The notes under the pieces are model-generated. The model searched no databases and was not told the origin of the DNA. It saw only the letters and a program-made list of their open reading frames with translations. Shown here one piece after another: positions 158 to 29,106 of a stretch of DNA of 37,130 nt. The stretch's first letter is position 1; every line of letters begins with the position of its first letter. Origin of the DNA: Candidatus Sericytochromatia bacterium (GTDB taxonomy: Bacteria; Cyanobacteriota; Sericytochromatia; UBA7694); assembly GCA_964229355.1 (NCBI GenBank), contig CAXRDE010000005.1, positions 1 through 37,130 on the forward strand, in the 5' to 3' direction. A program made the position numbers and the translations under genes.

Positions 158-415
158 ATGGAAAACCTATACGGCAATGATACGATTTGGGGAGTAAACG
201 GATTATCGACAGGGAATACGCTTGTTTTTAGAACCGAAAATGATAATGCTACTACAGGCTATACCTACGGTAGAAGTTATCTGAGAAGACAGTCGAACAA
301 TGTACTTGTAGACTACACTAATTTTGGTGGTGTCTTTGGGGCCACCTGGGCAGAAAGCAATAGTACAAAGCCTCTTGGTTGGTATGCAACGACTTTCTCT
401 GTTAACTTCAATTAA
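158..415 (+). CDS. small hypothetical protein (~85 aa), Gly/Asn/Thr/Trp/Tyr-rich, no signal peptide
   Basis: ORF track 155..415 (GTG); in-frame ATG at 158 preceded by a GGACAGGAA purine-rich stretch. The gene is AT-rich and is followed directly by a strong intrinsic terminator. I recognise no homolog. Confidence 0.4.
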   Translation: MENLYGNDTIWGVNGLSTGNTLVFRTENDNATTGYTYGRSYLRRQSNNVLVDYTNFGGVFGATWAESNSTKPLGWYATTFSVNFN

Positions 416-424
416 TAAATTTAT

Positions 425-469
425 CAAGTAGGCACTTATTCTTAGTGCCTACTTGATTCTATCTTTTTT
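425..469 (+). terminator. rho-independent terminator
   Basis: Perfect 12-bp inverted repeat CAAGTAGGCACT / AGTGCCTACTTG (425-436 and 444-455) with a 7-nt loop, followed by ATTCTATCTTTTTT, immediately 3' of the 158..415 ORF stop. Confidence 0.75.
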
Positions 470-481
470 AGAAAGCGCTTT

Positions 482-1855
482 ATGCAACATAAGTTCATTA
501 TTCACACTTGTTTCCTTTCTTTTTTTGCTGCTTGCTCTGTATCCAATCCACCGAGTTCAAGTGAGCCTGTGCCGGAGTCCTCCCCTTCGAGCAGTGTCTC
601 GGCGAGCCCTGTCAGCCCTCTTGCAAGTCCGTCACCTGAAAACACATCTTCGCCTACTGCCACAGAAGTTTCGCCAAATCCTGTTCAATTACACTATCTT
701 TCTGAGGGTAATTTAGCCACCCGACTCTTTGCCATAGATTCAGAAACAGGACAGTATCTGGCATGGCAAACGGAACGGGGAGAAACCAAGATCTTTGATG
801 GCAATACCACACAAATTTTAGTGCCCAGCATCAAATATAACGTGATCAATCCAATGTTGGGTTATATCAATGCGGAGCAAAAGGGAGTGTTTTTTATTCG
901 ATCAGAAACGTCACCAGATAACCCTGATCATGAGAATCAAGGGAATTCACAATCCCTTACTCTACAAAACAACCACTCCTTTAACCTGCAAACATTTGCA
1001 AAACGACAAATTCGCGCACTGGGTCTAAGTCCTGAAGGCAATGGTTACGCTTTATTAAGTAATGAGTATAGACCGCCCGTTAATCGAGAAAATACAGAAC
1101 TGCCTCATGTCGCCGTGTACACCGCCAAAGTTACTAACTTCACAGTGGAAGAACCTAAGTTATTGTTCGAAACGGAAATTAGCAATGTATCAGGTAAAGA
1201 CATCGTGTTTCATGCCAGTATCGATCCCGATGGTTCAGGCTTTGTTTTATTACCGAGTTTCAACCCTTCTGGAACCGTCTTACAAAAGTTTAATCAACAG
1301 CAACAACATTTTGAGCCCCAATTGATACCAAATACTTCTAACTCGGACTATTTTCTCTCTAACCCAGCCAGAAACACACCACATTTTTTGACAAAAGTTG
1401 AAGTCGAAGTTAAAGATAGATACACTAAAATCAGCAAGCTAGCGATTTATGGACTTGCGGATCACCAACTCACAGGACAAACTTATCGCTTTCCAGCACC
1501 TGTGATATGGGGAAGTGATTTACGTCAAAAACACTCACTGATTCCATATGACTTAAAGCTTGATCCGCAGGGCAATGGCCTATTCGTGAGCGTGGACAAA
1601 AGCGACGAAAGCCGCCAGGACATTATTCTGTTGCAACGGTTTAAAAACTTCACCCAGCAAGATGCTCAGCGCTTTGTCTATCCCGGTGAAACGGCGGTAA
1701 TAGATCTCAAACTGATGGTAGATGAGCAGGGGACGGGCAAGTTGATCATCCTTGAAGAAGCATGTGTTCAAGATAACCGTTGCAGCAACTTCTTCCCTGA
1801 AAATGGAGACATGCAATTGAGCTATTTAAACCTACAAGGGTTTTTATTAAAATAA
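482..1855 (+). CDS. putative lipoprotein with Ser/Pro-rich linker (hypothetical)
   Basis: N-terminal signal peptide ending in the lipobox-like FFAAC. This is followed by a low-complexity SSSEPVPESSPSSSVSASPVSPLASPSP linker and a ~400-aa globular region with no motif I recognise. Confidence 0.6.
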   Translation: MQHKFIIHTCFLSFFAACSVSNPPSSSEPVPESSPSSSVSASPVSPLASPSPENTSSPTATEVSPNPVQLHYLSEGNLATRLFAIDSETGQYLAWQTERGETKIFDGNTTQILVPSIKYNVINPMLGYINAEQKGVFFIRSETSPDNPDHENQGNSQSLTLQNNHSFNLQTFAKRQIRALGLSPEGNGYALLSNEYRPPVNRENTELPHVAVYTAKVTNFTVEEPKLLFETEISNVSGKDIVFHASIDPDGSGFVLLPSFNPSGTVLQKFNQQQQHFEPQLIPNTSNSDYFLSNPARNTPHFLTKVEVEVKDRYTKISKLAIYGLADHQLTGQTYRFPAPVIWGSDLRQKHSLIPYDLKLDPQGNGLFVSVDKSDESRQDIILLQRFKNFTQQDAQRFVYPGETAVIDLKLMVDEQGTGKLIILEEACVQDNRCSNFFPENGDMQLSYLNLQGFLLK

Positions 1856-1879
1856 TCCAATTTTCAAACTTTAGGCACA

Positions 1880-2200
1880 CCAACTATGCAGATCGCCGCA
1901 GCATCGCTACGCTCGCAAGTCAGCTTCGGCGTTCCGCATACATCGTGTTAAAGGCCAACTAAATGCTCATGTTTGAGGACGAAAGGGCTGCAGCAATCAC
2001 ACAACCAGGAAAGGCGCAAGATCTTGACATTTTCCACGTTGAACACTCCCCGACCTAATCAATGCTGTCCTTATTCGTACGGCTCACAAGTTCGCCTACG
2101 ACTAAGGCAAGGTCGGAGATTCTAAGACTACGCATGTGGCAACCCACTACGTTAACGCCTTAAGGGTCTGACCGGCCCCACGTTTTCGTATATTTTCCGC
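1880..2200 (-). ncRNA. predicted TnpB-associated omega-RNA (reRNA) region overlapping the tnpB 3' end / right end
   Basis: Established architecture of IS200/IS605 places the omegaRNA across the 3' end of tnpB and the right end. The 290-nt non-coding stretch 3' of tnpB (minus strand) contains CCGACC...GGTCGG and other short stem candidates. Boundaries are a guess. Confidence 0.3.
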
Positions 2201-3313
2201 TGCATTCAGGTCACGGTCAAGCTCCAGACCACAGTGTGTGCAGCGATGCACCCTGACAGCCAACGATTTTGGAACCTTTTCACCACAACCTGAACAGTTT
2301 TGGCTGGTGCCCTTTGGGTCTACGCGATACACCTTCCTACCGGCTCCTTCCGCCTTGTAGGTCAGCATGTCGAAAAAGGTGCTCCAACCAGCATCAGCAA
2401 TAGATTTGCTGAGATGCTTGTTCTTGACCATATTGGTCACTTGCAAGTCTTCGATGTAGATATTCTGGTAACGATTCACATAGTGAAATGAGGCTTTGTG
2501 CAAGAAATCCTGCCGCAGGTTGAAGATTTTGCGGTGGGTTTTCTTCAGTTGTTTGACTGCTTTTTTTCTGCGATTTGAACCCTTCTTACGGCGCGACACT
2601 TGGCGCTGTTGCTTTCTGAGATTGTCCTGTAGCTTACGGTAATACTTGGGGTTCTCAATGGGTGTGGTATTCGGGTCTGTGTCCACACAAAAATGCTTCA
2701 GCCCTACGTCAATGCCCACAGAATCTTGCACGGGCCTATCGTATTCCTTGGCAGGCACCTGGTCACAGGTCAAGCAGACCCACCAGCCCCCCAAACCATC
2801 ACGGGTGACGGTAACCGTCTTAATGCGGCCTTCGATGGGACGAGACAAATGCAGCTTAAAAATGCCCACGTTCGTGATTTTCAGATGGCGTCCGTCCAGC
2901 TTCCAGCCTGCCGTTTTGAGGGTAAACGAATCGTAACGGTGAATGGAGCGAAAACGCGGAAAGCCTGCTTTGCCTTGCTTCTTACGCAAACGAGAAAAGA
3001 AACTCTGAAAGGCCCGCTCAACACGCTCAACCACTTCTTGCAGTACCTGAGAGCCCACCTGAGCAAACTCAGGAAAAGCCTTTTTGAACCCAGGTAGTTC
3101 ATTCTTTTGAGCAATCCCATTGAGGGTTATACCACAGCGCTTGTAAGCCACAATACGCTGTTCCAGGCAGATATTGTAGAGCTGTTGGCACAAAGACAGC
3201 CAGTTTTCGGCTTTGGCAGCCGTGGTTTTGCTGACCACTGCTTTGAACTTGTATGTTCTGATGCGTGATGTCTCTTTCTTGGCTTTCGTTTTGCTCATCG
3301 TGTGCCGTGCCAT
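2147..3313 (-). CDS. tnpB: IS605-family TnpB (OrfB) RNA-guided endonuclease
   Basis: 388-aa ORF with a RuvC-I GIDVG motif. It also has a C-terminal zinc finger CSGCG...CTHCG followed by the RuvC-III DRDLNAAENI motif typical of TnpB/Cas12 ancestors. An alternative start at MSKTK (3298) directly abuts the tnpA stop. Confidence 0.85.
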   Translation of the reverse strand: MARHTMSKTKAKKETSRIRTYKFKAVVSKTTAAKAENWLSLCQQLYNICLEQRIVAYKRCGITLNGIAQKNELPGFKKAFPEFAQVGSQVLQEVVERVERAFQSFFSRLRKKQGKAGFPRFRSIHRYDSFTLKTAGWKLDGRHLKITNVGIFKLHLSRPIEGRIKTVTVTRDGLGGWWVCLTCDQVPAKEYDRPVQDSVGIDVGLKHFCVDTDPNTTPIENPKYYRKLQDNLRKQQRQVSRRKKGSNRRKKAVKQLKKTHRKIFNLRQDFLHKASFHYVNRYQNIYIEDLQVTNMVKNKHLSKSIADAGWSTFFDMLTYKAEGAGRKVYRVDPKGTSQNCSGCGEKVPKSLAVRVHRCTHCGLELDRDLNAAENIRKRGAGQTLKALT

Positions 3314-3708
3314 TCTATGTATCTGCGAACGGTTTCTGAACTGACGTTACCAGCGGTGCTGACAAAGTAAGAGTTCGTCCAGAGTGAGCGATTTTTGCCT
3401 CTGGGATAGACGGTTTTGAGTCTGGGAAACTCTGCCCGAAGCATACGCGAAGTGTAGCCTTTGAGTAAAAAGGCAATGTCACGAGGCGCAAACTTGGGCA
3501 GAGCGTTAACAAAGAGGTGCACATGGTCTGATTGTATCTCAAGCGCAATGATTTCTAAACTCAGGTCTTTGCATTTTTCATGCAAAAAGGCATCCTGTCT
3601 TTCAGCAATTTGCCCAACGAGGCTCTTTTTCCTGCGTTTGGGAATCCACACGAAGTGGAAGTTAATCAGGCTGACAGAGTGATTCAGGCGCTTGTAATCT
3701 TGACCCAT
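3295..3708 (-). CDS. tnpA: IS200-like TnpA, Y1 (HuH) single-strand transposase
   Basis: 137 aa; the HuH motif SDHVHLFV and the C-terminal catalytic Tyr context ETVRRYIEWH match IS200/IS605 TnpA. Confidence 0.85.
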   Translation of the reverse strand: MGQDYKRLNHSVSLINFHFVWIPKRRKKSLVGQIAERQDAFLHEKCKDLSLEIIALEIQSDHVHLFVNALPKFAPRDIAFLLKGYTSRMLRAEFPRLKTVYPRGKNRSLWTNSYFVSTAGNVSSETVRRYIEWHGTR

Positions 3709-3715
3709 ATGCTTA

Positions 3716-3907
3716 GCTCCAGCGTTCCATTTCTTTAACCAGTCTCAGGGCCATCTGAAAGCCTTCACGGAAGCCTTTTTCTTCGGCCACAAACAAAGGG
3801 CCTGTGGCTGCATCGTTCAGATTGCGAATGATTTGGCTGGTAGTTTCCACTTGTTCTGCTGGCAGCAAAGATTGCAGGTGGGCACATATACGGTCAATTT
3901 CCTTGCT
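3716..3907 (-). pseudogene. start-less 64-codon ORF fragment ending 8 nt before tnpA (possible gene remnant or left-end passenger)
   Basis: Open frame SKEIDRICAHLQSLLPAEQ...GFQMALRLVKEMERWS* bounded upstream by an in-frame TAG and containing no ATG/GTG/TTG start before its last 13 codons. It is not in the ORF track for that reason. Confidence 0.25.
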
Positions 3908-4184
3908 CTAGCCTGTCAAACTTTAGCAACAAATTAACTAGAGAATCTCTTCGCTACAACGAAGCCCAAGAAATAGCCGAAGCTTTGGGTTATGAGATTG
4001 TTTGGAAGAAGAAAGAAAGTTAAAGGCTACTTTGCAAATGATGCCCGTCTGTAAAGGATTGACTACTGACGACCAAGCTTCGCTTGGTGGAGCTTATATC
4101 CCTAACCTGAAGGACGGGGTTTTACGCTCCGTGCTATAATAAACCTCAGTGCTTATCTTTTTATTCAGTTATTCAGGGGATTTT

Positions 4185-5024
4185 ATGAGCCAACCCATTT
4201 CATCTGGTCACCCGTTGCGTCCACCGCAGCAATTGTTTGGGGCCGTCAAACAGTATCAACCTGTGCAAAACGCCACGGTAAACGCTGCCGCACAGACACC
4301 GGTCGGCCAGCCAACACCCCAGGTTCAACCCGCAGCAGATCGCCTGGCTTCTTCTTCCCCTACAGCCAGTGCCAGCACCAGCCTGCAATTTGTAGACACC
4401 CCCCGCCTCGGCCCCGATGACCGGGTCTTACACATTGGCGATTCCCATACCGTGGGTATTTACGGCCAGGAAATGGACAAACACTTGCGCAGCACAGGCG
4501 CTAAAGTGGCCACCTACGGCTCTGCGGGCTCTTCACCCAAATGGTGGATTACCGGACAAACCACCCGCTCCGGCTTTTTTAGCCGTGATGCGGAAGAAAA
4601 AACCACCCAGCCCGCCAAATGGAACGATCCCCATCCTACCCCCAAACTCAAAAATTTGCTGGAGCAGTTTCGCCCCAATGTGGTGGTGTTCTCGCTCGGC
4701 GCCAACCTGATCAACGCCAACCCGGCCACCATTGAGTCCCAAATGCGCGAAATCGCCGATATGGCCAAATCCTATGGCACTGAAATTATTTGGGTGGGGC
4801 CACCCGATGGACGCGAGAGCAAAAAGCCCACCTCCAAGCAAAACGAGCTCTACCAGACCTTAGAACGGGTGGCCAAAGAGTATGGTGATTTTATTGACTC
4901 ACGCCCCCTGACTGAGTACCCTGCTACCGGTGGTGATGGGGTACATTACTGGGGCAAGGAAGGCACGCGTATTGCGAAATCCTGGGCCGAAGATGTGTTT
5001 CAGCAAATTCAGGGTCTTAAGTAG
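4185..5024 (+). CDS. SGNH/GDSL-family hydrolase with Pro/Gln/Ala-rich N-terminal low-complexity region
   Basis: SGNH blocks are present: LHIGDSHTVG (block I), YGSAGSS (block II), SLGANLIN (block III) and DGVHYW (block V DxxH). The ATG at 4185 has AGGGGA 5 nt upstream and is preferred over the 4149 start. Confidence 0.7.
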   Translation: MSQPISSGHPLRPPQQLFGAVKQYQPVQNATVNAAAQTPVGQPTPQVQPAADRLASSSPTASASTSLQFVDTPRLGPDDRVLHIGDSHTVGIYGQEMDKHLRSTGAKVATYGSAGSSPKWWITGQTTRSGFFSRDAEEKTTQPAKWNDPHPTPKLKNLLEQFRPNVVVFSLGANLINANPATIESQMREIADMAKSYGTEIIWVGPPDGRESKKPTSKQNELYQTLERVAKEYGDFIDSRPLTEYPATGGDGVHYWGKEGTRIAKSWAEDVFQQIQGLK

Positions 5025-5836
5025 CTCTGCCCCGATTTTAAAATCTGCAGGCCCGCTGCGGTGCGAAACAGCGTGGGCACGGTGGTGCGTTCTTCGCCAC
5101 TGAGCACACGGTGCACCTGAAAATGCAGGTGCGGGCCACCACTATAGCCTGTAGAACCTGAATAGCCTAAAATCTGGCCCACAGCGACCTTTTGTCCAGG
5201 CTGAACCAGCACGCCGCGGTACTTTAAATGGCCATAGAGAGCAATCGAGCCGTCATTGTGCATAATTTCTACGCGATTGTCTTTGCCTTTAAAGCGGTCT
5301 TCAATGCCGCCCTCAGAAAAACGCTCTTCAGTCCAAATCACCTGCCCGGCACGGGCCGCGTGTACGGGCGTTCCCTCAGGCAGTGAAAAATCCAGGGCAA
5401 AGCGTCCCGGACCCTGATGGGTAAAGTCTCCGTTATAAGCCTGCCCCATACGGTAATTTGCCCCCGAAGCATAGGGCAGCTCGTAAATATGCTTGCGTTC
5501 AACCACAGCCCGAAAGTCTCCCCGCTGATACCGATAACGGTAGCGAAAATGCCAGGGATGTAAAGGTTCTTTTTTGGCCAGGCTCAAGACCTGCCGTGAA
5601 AAAGGCGGTAAGACCAGGGTACAGGGGTTGTCACAGTCTATGCGCACGTTCTCAAAGGGCACAAAGTGCAAGGTCACCGTGTAGGGGGCAGGTTCTGGAT
5701 TCACCAATACCAGCTGGTAAGCCGCTTTGAGATAGGTAATGGTGAACTGAGGGCGTTTTTTTTCGGGGGCGGCCCCACTGCAGAAAAGCAGGACACACAC
5801 CCATCCAATGAGAAAAAAGCCGCGCAAAGCTAACAC
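5009..5836 (-). CDS. M23 (LytM-type) metallopeptidase, secreted
   Basis: Motifs FTHQGPGRFALDF (HxxxD) and GPHLHFQVH (HxH). The N-terminal hydrophobic signal is MLALRGFFLIGWVCVLLFCSG when started at GTG 5836. This start lies 3 nt after the upstream ADP-ribosylglycohydrolase stop, whereas the 5917 start would overlap that gene by 78 nt. Confidence 0.75.
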   Translation of the reverse strand: MLALRGFFLIGWVCVLLFCSGAAPEKKRPQFTITYLKAAYQLVLVNPEPAPYTVTLHFVPFENVRIDCDNPCTLVLPPFSRQVLSLAKKEPLHPWHFRYRYRYQRGDFRAVVERKHIYELPYASGANYRMGQAYNGDFTHQGPGRFALDFSLPEGTPVHAARAGQVIWTEERFSEGGIEDRFKGKDNRVEIMHNDGSIALYGHLKYRGVLVQPGQKVAVGQILGYSGSTGYSGGPHLHFQVHRVLSGEERTTVPTLFRTAAGLQILKSGQSYLRP

Positions 5837-5838
5837 AA

Positions 5839-6789
5839 CTAACGCCGCAGGAGCCACGCCACAAAACGTTCGTAAGGGGGTGTGAGTATCTCTTGCCCCC
5901 GCAGCATATTCAGCCACTGGGGGGGAATCCCCTCAACACCGTAGATATAGCCTGCAAGTCCGCCCGTCACACAGGCGGTGGTATCAGTATCTTCTCCCAG
6001 ATTCACGGCCTTGAGCACCGCCTCACGGTACGAGCTGCTGGTCAACACACACCAATACGCCGCCTCAAGGGTGTCCAATACATGACCCCTGCCGGAAATT
6101 TTCTCTGCAGGGGTATCGGCAAAGGTGCCCGCCAAAATGCGGCCATAAAACGGCAACTGGGGCTCAGCACAGTCCTCAGTGGCCCGCTGCAAGGCCACTG
6201 AAAAGTCTGAGTCCAGGTAGCTGAAGCACTGCACATAATGCTGACAGGCCGCAATGACCTGTGGGTGAGCGTGAGTCACCGCAGACACTTGCGCCACAAG
6301 CTCAGGATCACTGCCCCAGGCCTTTTGCCAGAGCGCCACCGGCAACATGCGCATTAAAGACCCATTGCCCTGGCTTTGTTCGTGGGTTAACCCTTTCAGC
6401 GCCAGGGGTTGGTTCCAAAAGAACTCTGAAATCACGTACTGCCGTAAGGCCTCTGCCGTGGTGTTGCCAATGTCAAAAACCTGCTGATCGACGGTGTACT
6501 TTGCCTCTTGCTGCCACTGCAGAAAATGCACGATCAAATGCTTTAAAAAGGCCTCTTCTTCGCCAGCCACAGGGGGCTGCTGAAAAAAGGTTTCCAGGGT
6601 GGCCAGGGTCATGGAGGTATCGTCGGACCAGGTGCCCGGAGGCTGCTCGTGGGTGCCATACCCATTCATGGTGGTCACGGGCTGCACATCAAACACCTGA
6701 CGGTCGGTAAACTCATGGGGAACGCCCAGGGCATCAGCCACTGCAGCGCCCCATAAAGCGCCCAACATTTGCTCTCGGTTTCCAGACAT
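5839..6789 (-). CDS. ADP-ribosylglycohydrolase family protein (DraG/ARH-like)
   Basis: N-terminal MLGALWGAAVADALGVPHEF matches the ARH family signature, and the C-terminal region has the conserved GEDTDTTACVTGGLAG-type di-metal motif. SD GGAAGAGGAG lies 7 nt upstream of the ATG. Confidence 0.8.
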   Translation of the reverse strand: MSGNREQMLGALWGAAVADALGVPHEFTDRQVFDVQPVTTMNGYGTHEQPPGTWSDDTSMTLATLETFFQQPPVAGEEEAFLKHLIVHFLQWQQEAKYTVDQQVFDIGNTTAEALRQYVISEFFWNQPLALKGLTHEQSQGNGSLMRMLPVALWQKAWGSDPELVAQVSAVTHAHPQVIAACQHYVQCFSYLDSDFSVALQRATEDCAEPQLPFYGRILAGTFADTPAEKISGRGHVLDTLEAAYWCVLTSSSYREAVLKAVNLGEDTDTTACVTGGLAGYIYGVEGIPPQWLNMLRGQEILTPPYERFVAWLLRR

Positions 6790-27543: not shown

Positions 27544-27768
27544 AAGAAATCTCCTTAAACCGAATATTTGATACATTTGTTAAAGACGTAGAAAATTCAA
27601 AAAAGTTCTGTGTGCCCAGGGCGCGCAGATGGTGCTCAGTATAGCGTAAAGTTGCAAGGGCTGCCTCAGTGCTTGAAAAGATAAAATACAGAAAGAATTA
27701 CTTCTGCGCACATTATCCTCTAAATATAATATGAGGTAAGTTTTACCAGAGGAAAAAGGTCCAGGATC

Positions 27769-28128
27769 ATGAACAAAATTAACCTACACCACAAATTAAC
27801 CCTGTTTTCCGAGCATTGGTCTCCCAGGGTCATTGCCGAAATGAATGACTACCAGTTTAAACTGGTCAAAATCAAAGGGGAATTTACCTGGCATGCCCAT
27901 GAGGACACAGACGAAGTCTTTTTGGTACTGGAAGGTGAAATGGGCATTGTCTTTAGAGACCAAACTGTTCTACTGTCTCAAGGTGAAATGCTCGTGGTTC
28001 CCAGGGGCGTCGAGCATAAACCCTTTGCTGAGCAAGAGTGTAAAGTCATGCTGATTGAGCCCAAAGGGGTTGTTAATACCGGGGAATCTGGTGGTCCGCT
28101 AACGGCGGAAAATGATGTGTGGATCTAA
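27769..28128 (+). CDS. cupin-domain protein
   Basis: The cupin motifs are present: G(x)5HxH-like [18 protein letters not shown] and [13 protein letters not shown]+C is lower than the flanking core genes. Confidence 0.65.
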
Positions 28129-28236
28129 AAGGCAGTGATGAGACCCAAATACCTGATGTTATTTTCGAACGCACTCCTCAAGTGTGGTGACCTGTAGCTT
28201 GCTATCGCTGGTTTACACTGAGTTTAAAACACTCTT

Positions 28237-28254
28237 CCTGAGATTGTACCTGTA
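28237..28254. repeat. 18-bp direct repeat copy 1 (CCTGAGATTGTACCTGTA), att-like core
   Basis: Exact match to 29142-29159. The sequence 28255-28310 on the minus strand encodes YDCERVWVHTPQQMVQVQSQEECFKLSVNQR*, a diverged copy of the radical-SAM gene C-terminus. Confidence 0.7.
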
Positions 28255-28425
28255 CCATCTGCTGGGGCGTATGAACCCAAACTCGCTCACAATCATACTG
28301 GAACAAATATGAGCGTATTATCGCTATCATCGTCATGGAGTCCGCATGGAACTAAAATCACAGTATAATTAAGACCTTTTTAAACCATAGAAAAATAATT
28401 CTGATAAGGCATTCACGTAAAAAAC

Positions 28426-28884
28426 ATGGAGTTTCAACACTATACAAAGCAGTATAAAGATCAGTGTTTAAAAGTTTTTGAAAGTAATATAGGTCAATAT
28501 TTTGATGCCTCAGAGCGAGAATTGTATACAGAATATCTGAATGCTTTAAGTCTCGATATAAACGCTAGCTATTATGTCTACTTGTTACATGGCGAAGTTA
28601 TTGCCTGTGGTGGCTATTTGTTGAATGTAAACGTTTGTGCTTTAGCGTGGGGAATGGTTCATCGGGATTTTCATAATAAGGGTATTGGTACAAAGCTTAT
28701 CGATTTTCGTTTAAGCCAGCTGTCGAAAAATAAAGATGTAAAAACTGTACTCATCGAGACTTCTCAACATACAAAAGGCTTTTACACACAACACGGTTTT
28801 GTTCAAACCCAGGTGATTAAAGACGGCTTTGGAAAAAATATTGATCGTATTTTGATGGAAAAGGTCATCGCACATCATCCATAA
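28426..28884 (+). CDS. GNAT-family N-acetyltransferase
   Basis: GNAT motif A HRDFHNKGIGTKLI. The gene is markedly AT-rich: a hand count of its first 100 nt gives about 31 G+C. Confidence 0.75.
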   Translation: MEFQHYTKQYKDQCLKVFESNIGQYFDASERELYTEYLNALSLDINASYYVYLLHGEVIACGGYLLNVNVCALAWGMVHRDFHNKGIGTKLIDFRLSQLSKNKDVKTVLIETSQHTKGFYTQHGFVQTQVIKDGFGKNIDRILMEKVIAHHP

Positions 28885-29106
28885 AAGATGCTTCAACTAC
28901 CGCCGACCAGGAGAATTCAAAGTCGAAATACTCACTTGCTTACGACAAACATCTTTTAATCGGGAGCCAATGCCATGGTCTGCACAATACCTCTGCTTTC
29001 TTCCTCAAACGATTAATTAATTGTAAACACAAAACGTCATTCATTAAAACCATAAAGATCCCTCACAAGTACAGGAAGCAGGAAGGATAAGTCCTAAAGC
29101 ATTTTC

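Follow-up and report, generated by a model that had tools for sequence, protein, structure and literature searches.

The question raised by this locus is whether a transposon that carries full-length genes for a single-strand DNA transposase and an RNA-guided nuclease is also an intact and mobile element. The locus lies in a 37,130-nt stretch of DNA (hereafter the window) of a Candidatus Sericytochromatia bacterium, and a preliminary description had placed there, at positions 1856-3910, an intact and plausibly active IS200/IS605-family element encoding TnpA and TnpB. Here, positions 2039-4135 of the minus strand, 2,097 bp in length, are identified as one IS200/IS605-family insertion sequence (IS) with co-oriented tnpA and tnpB genes. 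We consider it likely that this is an ordinary IS605-type element whose nuclease half is complete and whose transposition half, namely recognition of the left end (LE) and native control from upstream, is probably impaired. Features described below are on the minus strand unless stated otherwise. The element is present in a single copy, with no other copy in the 37-kb window.

To set the ends of the element, the window was compared with sibling copies inserted at different sites. Five short metagenome contigs (L016-L020) recovered in a protein search encode a TnpB with 95% identity (P0001), and further sibling variants are carried by L107/L108 and L106. Among the matches listed, a profile scan of metagenomes returned relatives at 33-55%; the closer copies were found protein by protein. 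The siblings L107/L108 and L016-L020 are 92-94% identical to the window in DNA, have the same ends and encode the same 137-aa and 383-aa proteins. The ends were read from L016/L018, L017, L020, L107 and L108. On the right side, homology among the siblings stops after a shared terminus, ...GGGGAGTGTTCAA, and is followed by four unrelated flanks (L016/L018, L017, L019/L020 and the window). Because the copies part into unrelated flanks there, the last base of the element is 2039 and positions 1856-2038 are host DNA. On the left side, TTAT immediately precedes the start of homology in five copies whose flanks are unrelated; these copies occupy different genomic sites, as the left flanks differ in L016, L107, L108, L106 and the window. 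The bases preceding the left end are ATTAT in the window and L106 and TTTAT in L016, L107 and L108. The LE thus covers 3709-4135, with 4135 as its first base, and is 92-94% identical to L016 281-515 and L106 1655-1425. A comparison of this kind had been proposed in the preliminary description as the means to define the end hairpins and the target, and its result, 2039-4135 with TTAT, shows that the earlier limits were misplaced on both sides: the LE extends 427 bp upstream of tnpA instead of about 200 bp, and of the roughly 290 bp of non-coding DNA noted 3' of tnpB, which do form a 291-bp gap free of open reading frames (ORFs) at 1856-2146, only 108 bp belong to the element.

The TTAT at 4136-4139 lies in the host flank, adjoins the left end on its 5' side and is the site for insertion and for predicted recognition by TnpB. 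The right-hand flank (CGTGG...) does not repeat TTAT, so that there is no target-site duplication. The same motif is found 16 nt 5' of the foot of the LE hairpin in L002, L100, L073, L101, L102, L103 and L105, and at 17-18 nt in L044 and L054. Judged from these insertion sites, the target-adjacent motif (TAM) of the TnpB should be TTAT. The uninterrupted joint at this locus would read ...GGTTTATTAT joined directly to CGTGGAAAATGTCAAG...

Both genes are full-length and free of frameshifts, as had been described, with the same lengths as in the siblings. tnpA (3295-3708) encodes an HUH/Y1 single-strand DNA transposase of 137 aa, an assignment supported by profile matches, solved structures and the ratio of nonsynonymous to synonymous substitution rates (dN/dS). 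It matches Pfam Y1_Tnp over profile positions 1-119 of 121 (3.8e-34, 117.9 bits, cut-off 23) and NCBIfam transpos_IS200 (1.4e-40, 138.4 bits, cut-off 55); among solved structures, it matches 2ec2 at 6e-36 and the IS608 TnpA 2a6m at 3.6e-23. tnpB (2147-3298) encodes an RNA-guided RuvC nuclease of 383 aa. The ORF 2147-3313 matches OrfB_IS605 and Cas12f1-like_TNB, and the likely start is the ATG at 3298, on which gene calls on an identical public contig and the sibling copies agree; this start overlaps the tnpA stop in an ATGA, which bears out the co-oriented, overlapping arrangement noted earlier. The TnpB matches NCBIfam guided_TnpB with 296.7 bits (3.1e-88, cut-off 100), scores 290.4 bits with the narrower IS200_TnpB model, under its cut-off of 425, and aligns to ISDra2 TnpB structures at E 8e-59. 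The sequence motifs on which the family assignment had been based could all be located: H62-V-H64 within SDHVHLFV and Y130 within RRYIEW in TnpA, and in TnpB the RuvC residues D197, E283 and D363 together with the zinc-finger cysteines C335, C338, C353 and C356, all invariant in an alignment of 39 sequences comprising the closest TnpB relatives. Combined with the profile matches and the ISDra2 alignment, these residues establish the identity of the element as an IS200/IS605 element with TnpA and the nuclease TnpB. Relative to L016, tnpA and tnpB display 84 synonymous-type and 33 nonsynonymous-type differences over 1.56 kb, with dN/dS of 0.127 for tnpA and 0.075 for tnpB at a dS of about 0.3, indicating strong purifying selection on both.

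An omega-RNA had been expected in the non-coding DNA 3' of tnpB, and a scaffold is present. A covariance model, R1, was built from 10 relatives with the window left out and gave a single significant match in the window, at 2180-2040 (71.4 bits, E 2.6e-15), with a 56-nt insertion in the loop of the terminal hairpin H3. The scaffold (2039-2180) consists of H1, a long-range helix P2 enclosing P3 and H2, and the terminal H3; it extends into tnpB over the final 34 nt of the gene, and the 290-bp gap is not filled by it. Across 100 sources, R1 gave 32 matches, on the tnpB strand and stopping at the right end (RE) where the RE had been located, and compensatory changes are seen in 22 of the 25 pairs in the alignment of these matches, where 95.5% of cells are paired and 0 of 500 shuffles did as well. 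The same four helices were obtained with RNAalifold on the ten closest distinct relatives, P2 enclosing GTTAACGT and P3 with H2; when the window is added, 95.3% of the cells are paired and compensatory changes support 17 of 25 pairs. This was not equalled in any of 500 shuffles, and slid registers dropped to 34-51%. One P2 pair is A-U in the window only and C-G in all others, a private compensatory double change. Over about 75 relatives the 3' terminus follows the pattern GAA(G/T)CC-stem-CTTTAG-stem-GGGAG..(G/T)TCA(A/C), after which the boundary is reached. MAFFT and RNAalifold applied to 32 divergent 150-nt 3' regions were useless (3 pairs), the use of close relatives and then of the covariance model being what worked. 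Rfam models gave no match anywhere in the window at gathering thresholds, and at permissive thresholds the matches in 1700-4300 stayed at chance level (E>1). Immediately 3' of the RE end, the host flank CGTGGAAAATGTCAAGATCT (2019-2038) occupies the place of a guide; by analogy with the TnpB literature, transcription reading through into it would supply the omega-RNA guide. The window contains the first 16 nt of this flank a single time, with no second guide match. A sigma-70-like match (TTGACC-17-GAAAAT, 2192-2220) is present in the 3' end of tnpB, just upstream of H1; it could be an internal omega-RNA promoter, the scan overall being not above chance.

The RE spans 2039-2146, the 108 bp 3' of tnpB, and its hairpin is identical to H3 of the omega-RNA. 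It comprises GAAT (2119-2122), the hairpin arms CTCCGACC (2111-2118) and GGTCGGGGAG (2046-2055) and the terminal TGTTCAA (2039-2045), so that the RE ends in TCAA. The sequence common to the sibling REs is CTCCGACC-loop-GGTCGGGGAGTGTTCAA, and the hairpin is present and conserved, with covariation. Its loop carries a 51-nt expansion (2058-2108) that is extra relative to L016-L020 and the outgroups. This expansion was considered as a private inactivating lesion and rejected, as an identical 51 nt is present in L107. It is a lineage trait and not a lesion, because the L107 lineage occupies other sites (the left flanks of L107 and L108 differ) and the loop of L102 is expanded as well. GC-rich palindromic inserts (e.g. 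GCCCCTCTGxGGG) were seen in L102 (~250-330 and 1500-1556) and L103 (~1880-1960); in these relatives they sit in or next to the LE hairpin, and in L102 also inside the RE hairpin loop, from which it follows that hairpin loops in this family of elements accept small insertions. The nuclease module, composed of tnpB, the omega-RNA and the RE, is complete and constrained and is probably functional.

The LE is ordered as TTAT, the cleavage point, AGCAC-GGAGC-G-T-AAAA, a hairpin, ATATAA-GCTCC and a second hairpin, CCAAGCgaaGCTTGG. The guide-like AAAA (4120-4123) lies 5' of the subterminal hairpin (IPL, 4100-4119, CCCCGTCC-TTCA-GGTTAGGG), which is followed by ATATAA (4094-4099), located between the IPL and the GCTCC arm, and by the second hairpin (4073-4087). 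The arms GGAGC (4126-4130) and GCTCC (4089-4093) form an outer helix of 5 bp around the hairpin, which we take as real because the arms covary among relatives (GTGGC/GCCAC, ACGCC/GGCGT, ACACC/GGTGT, TGGCC/GGCCA). This helix at 4089-4130, with its equivalents in L002, L100, L101 and L105, adds a structured layer to the LE. The layout recurs in more distant relatives, including L002 (66% TnpB identity), in which tnpA is inverted. In the window, 2 of the 8 pairs of the IPL are broken and one is a wobble. The predicted energy of the window IPL, folded alone as DNA, is -0.8 kcal/mol (z +1.1), a value not better than that of shuffled sequence, compared to -6.8 kcal/mol in L016, L107 and L108 and -5.2 in L106. 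As the LE hairpin has lost 2 of 8 pairs, the transposition half appears compromised. Absence of the subterminal hairpins in comparison with other copies had been named in the preliminary description as a finding that would speak against an intact element; this applies at one end only, the LE, where the hairpin is at the conserved position but predicted to be unstable, the RE hairpin being conserved.

A second difference from the siblings concerns the interval between the LE and tnpA, where they carry a divergent module (L016 397-1065; L107 386-1063): one gene, for a small DNA-binding protein, lies on the opposite strand, and a 103-aa ORF (ORF103) ends 3-4 nt before tnpA. The DNA-binding gene encodes a 72-aa DUF6471-like protein in L016 and L106 (ORF72) and a 67-aa Xre HTH_3 protein in L107 and L108; it has thus been swapped between unrelated types while its position was kept. 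One relative, P0125, scores above the cut-off of Pfam DUF6471. ORF103 is an orphan, with only 2 clusters among 5.8 billion proteins, and two full-length forms show a weak DUF6809 match (E 1e-3). L106 (1-1665) is a degenerate copy in which ORF72 is intact, ORF103 is frameshifted and tnpA has an internal deletion. In the window, only remnants of the module are found, at 3713-4023. A 355-bp internal deletion has its junction at 3904/3905, a point at which about 355 bp are present in L106 and L016. L106 is the closest match on both sides, and its alignment with the window shows 94% and 91% identity on either side of the gap. Lost in the deletion were the 5' part of ORF72, ~40 codons from the start of ORF103 and, between the two, intergenic DNA containing a TATAAT-like box. 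ORF72 is reduced to its last 38 codons and stop (3907-4023, plus strand), its start and upstream region being deleted, and the translation SSLSNFSNKLTRESLRYNEAQEIAEALGYEIVWKKKES* is the tail of L016 397-615 (minus strand). ORF103 is reduced to 64 codons without ATG (3713-3907), ending 4 nt before tnpA, and this remnant is 68% identical to residues 42-103 of the L016 ORF103, its DNA being ~91-94% identical to the L107 and L106 versions. As a result of the deletion, the region upstream of the ORF103-tnpA-tnpB string is gone together with the 5' parts of the two small accessory genes. The position of the deletion and the TATAAT-like box, recognised by eye, suggest that a promoter was lost with it. 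The segment 4000-4140 of the plus strand was also considered as a remnant RE/omega-RNA of a second TnpB element; this was rejected, as it is the LE and the ORF72 tail, colinear with L016 and L106.

The activities of TnpA and of TnpB with its omega-RNA are predicted here from sequence, and in the cycle expected of such an element the HUH/Y1 transposase TnpA would bind the subterminal hairpins on single-stranded DNA and cut 3' of TTAT on the left and 3' of TCAA on the right; each site would be recognised by base pairing with a tetranucleotide 5' of the respective hairpin, AAAA in the case of the left end. The element would move as a single-strand circle without target duplication. TnpB would bind the omega-RNA, derived from the 3' end of tnpB and the RE (2180-2039) and reading through into the flank (2038 downward), and the complex would cut TTAT-flanked DNA matching the guide, i.e. 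the empty donor joint, so that the element would be restored by recombination.

These features were compared with known systems. IS608 reads its cleavage sites, TTAC and TCAA, through a tetranucleotide located 5' of each hairpin foot, with AAAG as the left guide (PMC3201880). The end logic agrees with that of IS608/ISHp608 of Helicobacter pylori, with subterminal imperfect palindromes, of which the LE one is weakened in the window, a 4-nt guide 5' of the hairpin foot and an RE ending in TCAA. The left cleavage site TTAC (CL) with its left guide AAAG (GL) corresponds to TTAT with AAAA here, and by the position-by-position pairing rule of IS608 a left guide AAAA calls for a TTAT target, which is what is seen. 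The two differ in the target, TTAC in IS608 and TTAT here, in the spacings, 19 and 10 nt in IS608 compared to 16 (LE) and 7 (RE) here, and in the extra covarying outer helix around the LE hairpin. The TnpA is nearer to the Sulfolobus (E 6e-36) and IS608 (4e-23) types than to the ISDra2 TnpA (2e-16). With ISDra2 of Deinococcus radiodurans, whose TnpB-omegaRNA structures (PDB 8H1J/8BF8/8EXA) align to TnpB residues 33-373 (E 8e-59), the element shares the RuvC D/E/D triad, the CxxC...CxxC zinc finger, an omega-RNA from the tnpB 3' end and RE, and the pairing of tnpA and tnpB in an IS200/IS605 element. However, the proteins are substantially diverged, the TAM is TTGAT in ISDra2 and TTAT here, and the terminal RNA hairpin carries the 51-nt expansion. 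A 4-bp TTAT TAM is recognised by the TnpB of ISDge10 (PMC13507860), the same motif as at the left end in the window; the shared motif may reflect convergence or common descent. Compared to the siblings L107/L108 and L016-L020, which have the complete divergent module and a stable LE hairpin, the window keeps only the tails of both genes.

The earlier view, of an IS element that is wholly intact, autonomous and active at present, agrees with many of these observations. Both ORFs are full-length and constrained, the copy retains the RE, omega-RNA, TTAT, AAAA, outer LE helix and second LE hairpin, insertions into the LE and the RE loop are tolerated in relatives, and the 51-nt RE expansion is common to the lineage at two other sites (L107, L108). 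Intactness holds for the proteins, the RE and the omega-RNA. Against it are the predicted instability of the window IPL, at an energy typical of shuffled sequence when all sibling IPLs are stable, the loss of 355 bp upstream of the tnpA gene string and the occurrence of one copy only in 37 kb, and we regard full activity as unlikely. The opposite view, a dead relic whose ORFs have just not yet been hit by stop codons, would account for the internal deletion and the degraded IPL, and a close copy, L106, is clearly degenerate; yet the excess of synonymous-type differences (84 against 33) without any frameshift, and RNA pairing kept by a compensatory change, make it very improbable. We give hardly any credence to an immobilised element in which TnpB and its omega-RNA are kept for a host function, in RNA-guided regulation or defence, with tnpA as a passenger. 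The low dN/dS of tnpB, the private compensatory change in the omega-RNA, the weakened LE and the fact that most close relatives are solo tnpB genes could be read in this way, but the RuvC triad is intact, unlike in nuclease-dead regulatory derivatives, tnpA is equally constrained, the guide is merely the adjacent flank and the siblings behave as ordinary mobile copies.

The preferred reading remains that of an ordinary element with a complete nuclease half and a probably impaired transposition half, and several points weigh against it. The outer helix and the second hairpin of the LE are unaffected, and with both intact the LE of the window may still work; moreover, the fold energy of an isolated DNA hairpin is a crude proxy for TnpA binding. 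Scans for promoters and terminators gave no more than expected from shuffled sequence, both in the window and in L016. A low dN/dS averages the whole divergence time and is no proof that the copy is active now. Finally, an empty site for the locus was not found, neither the exact 457-aa flanking protein nor the exact TnpB being on record. On balance, transposition competence of the window copy appears doubtful.

The closest TnpB relatives come from bins labelled Sericytochromatia, Melainabacteria and cyanobacteria. In one relative, L104 (894-2004), a 63%-identical TnpB has its start overlapped by a 151-aa ORF for which no Y1_Tnp match is recorded; upstream there is an HTH_3 gene in the opposite orientation, in a context that looks phage-like. 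A tblastn search against phage records gave only matches below 45% identity, annotated as generic transposase or hypothetical protein.

Around the element, window 295-6708 is identical to a contig of Logan sample SRR28144605, and the GC content is 0.40-0.45 in 1-2000, in agreement with the AT-rich composition noted earlier for the DNA before the element, and ~0.52-0.56 beyond 4000. The low-GC side, where the preliminary description had placed putative accessory genes (158-1855), holds a 457-aa ORF (482-1855) with no family match in Pfam or NCBIfam profile searches; at its N-terminus, what looks like a signal peptide with a Cys precedes a Ser/Pro-rich linker. On the other side, a GDSL-like hydrolase gene begins at 4185, its start codon being separated by just 49 bp from the left end upstream; the insertion may have cut this gene off from its promoter or may provide it with one. 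Elsewhere, the window codes for ordinary chromosomal functions, among them alanine racemase, aldehyde dehydrogenase, an MscS-type channel, an MMPL transporter and glycine cleavage P protein. Farther away, an AT-rich island (27600-29000, GC 0.39-0.41 compared to ~0.53) contains an unannotated 119-aa ORF and a GNAT acetyltransferase gene, and an imperfect 55-nt direct repeat (73%) is found at 28237 and 29142.

The family, mechanism, TAM and RNA type of this element are all already known, and the exchangeable module of DNA-binding gene and ORF103 in the siblings is the one unusual feature. The comparison with the siblings shows that full-length ORFs are no guarantee of an intact IS. The practical value is modest: the locus contributes a further TnpB, of 383 aa, that has a short predicted TAM, TTAT, and an omega-RNA scaffold supported by covariation, and compact nucleases of the TnpB kind are screened for genome editing. 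In addition, the ends, the target and the RNA structure are now precisely defined for a TnpB clade of Sericytochromatia- and Melainabacteria-like metagenome bins. The accessory module is the only feature that could lead to something new. With a DNA-binding gene divergent from the ORF103-tnpA-tnpB string, the lineage may, as a tentative suggestion, be an IS200/IS605 variant with its own transcriptional switch; a narrow literature search on IS605 passenger genes found no self-regulated IS605-type element and no such module. If the small protein represses the transposase and nuclease genes, the window copy would be a natural deletion of repressor and operator/promoter, and the module could open the way to self-regulation in IS605-type elements.

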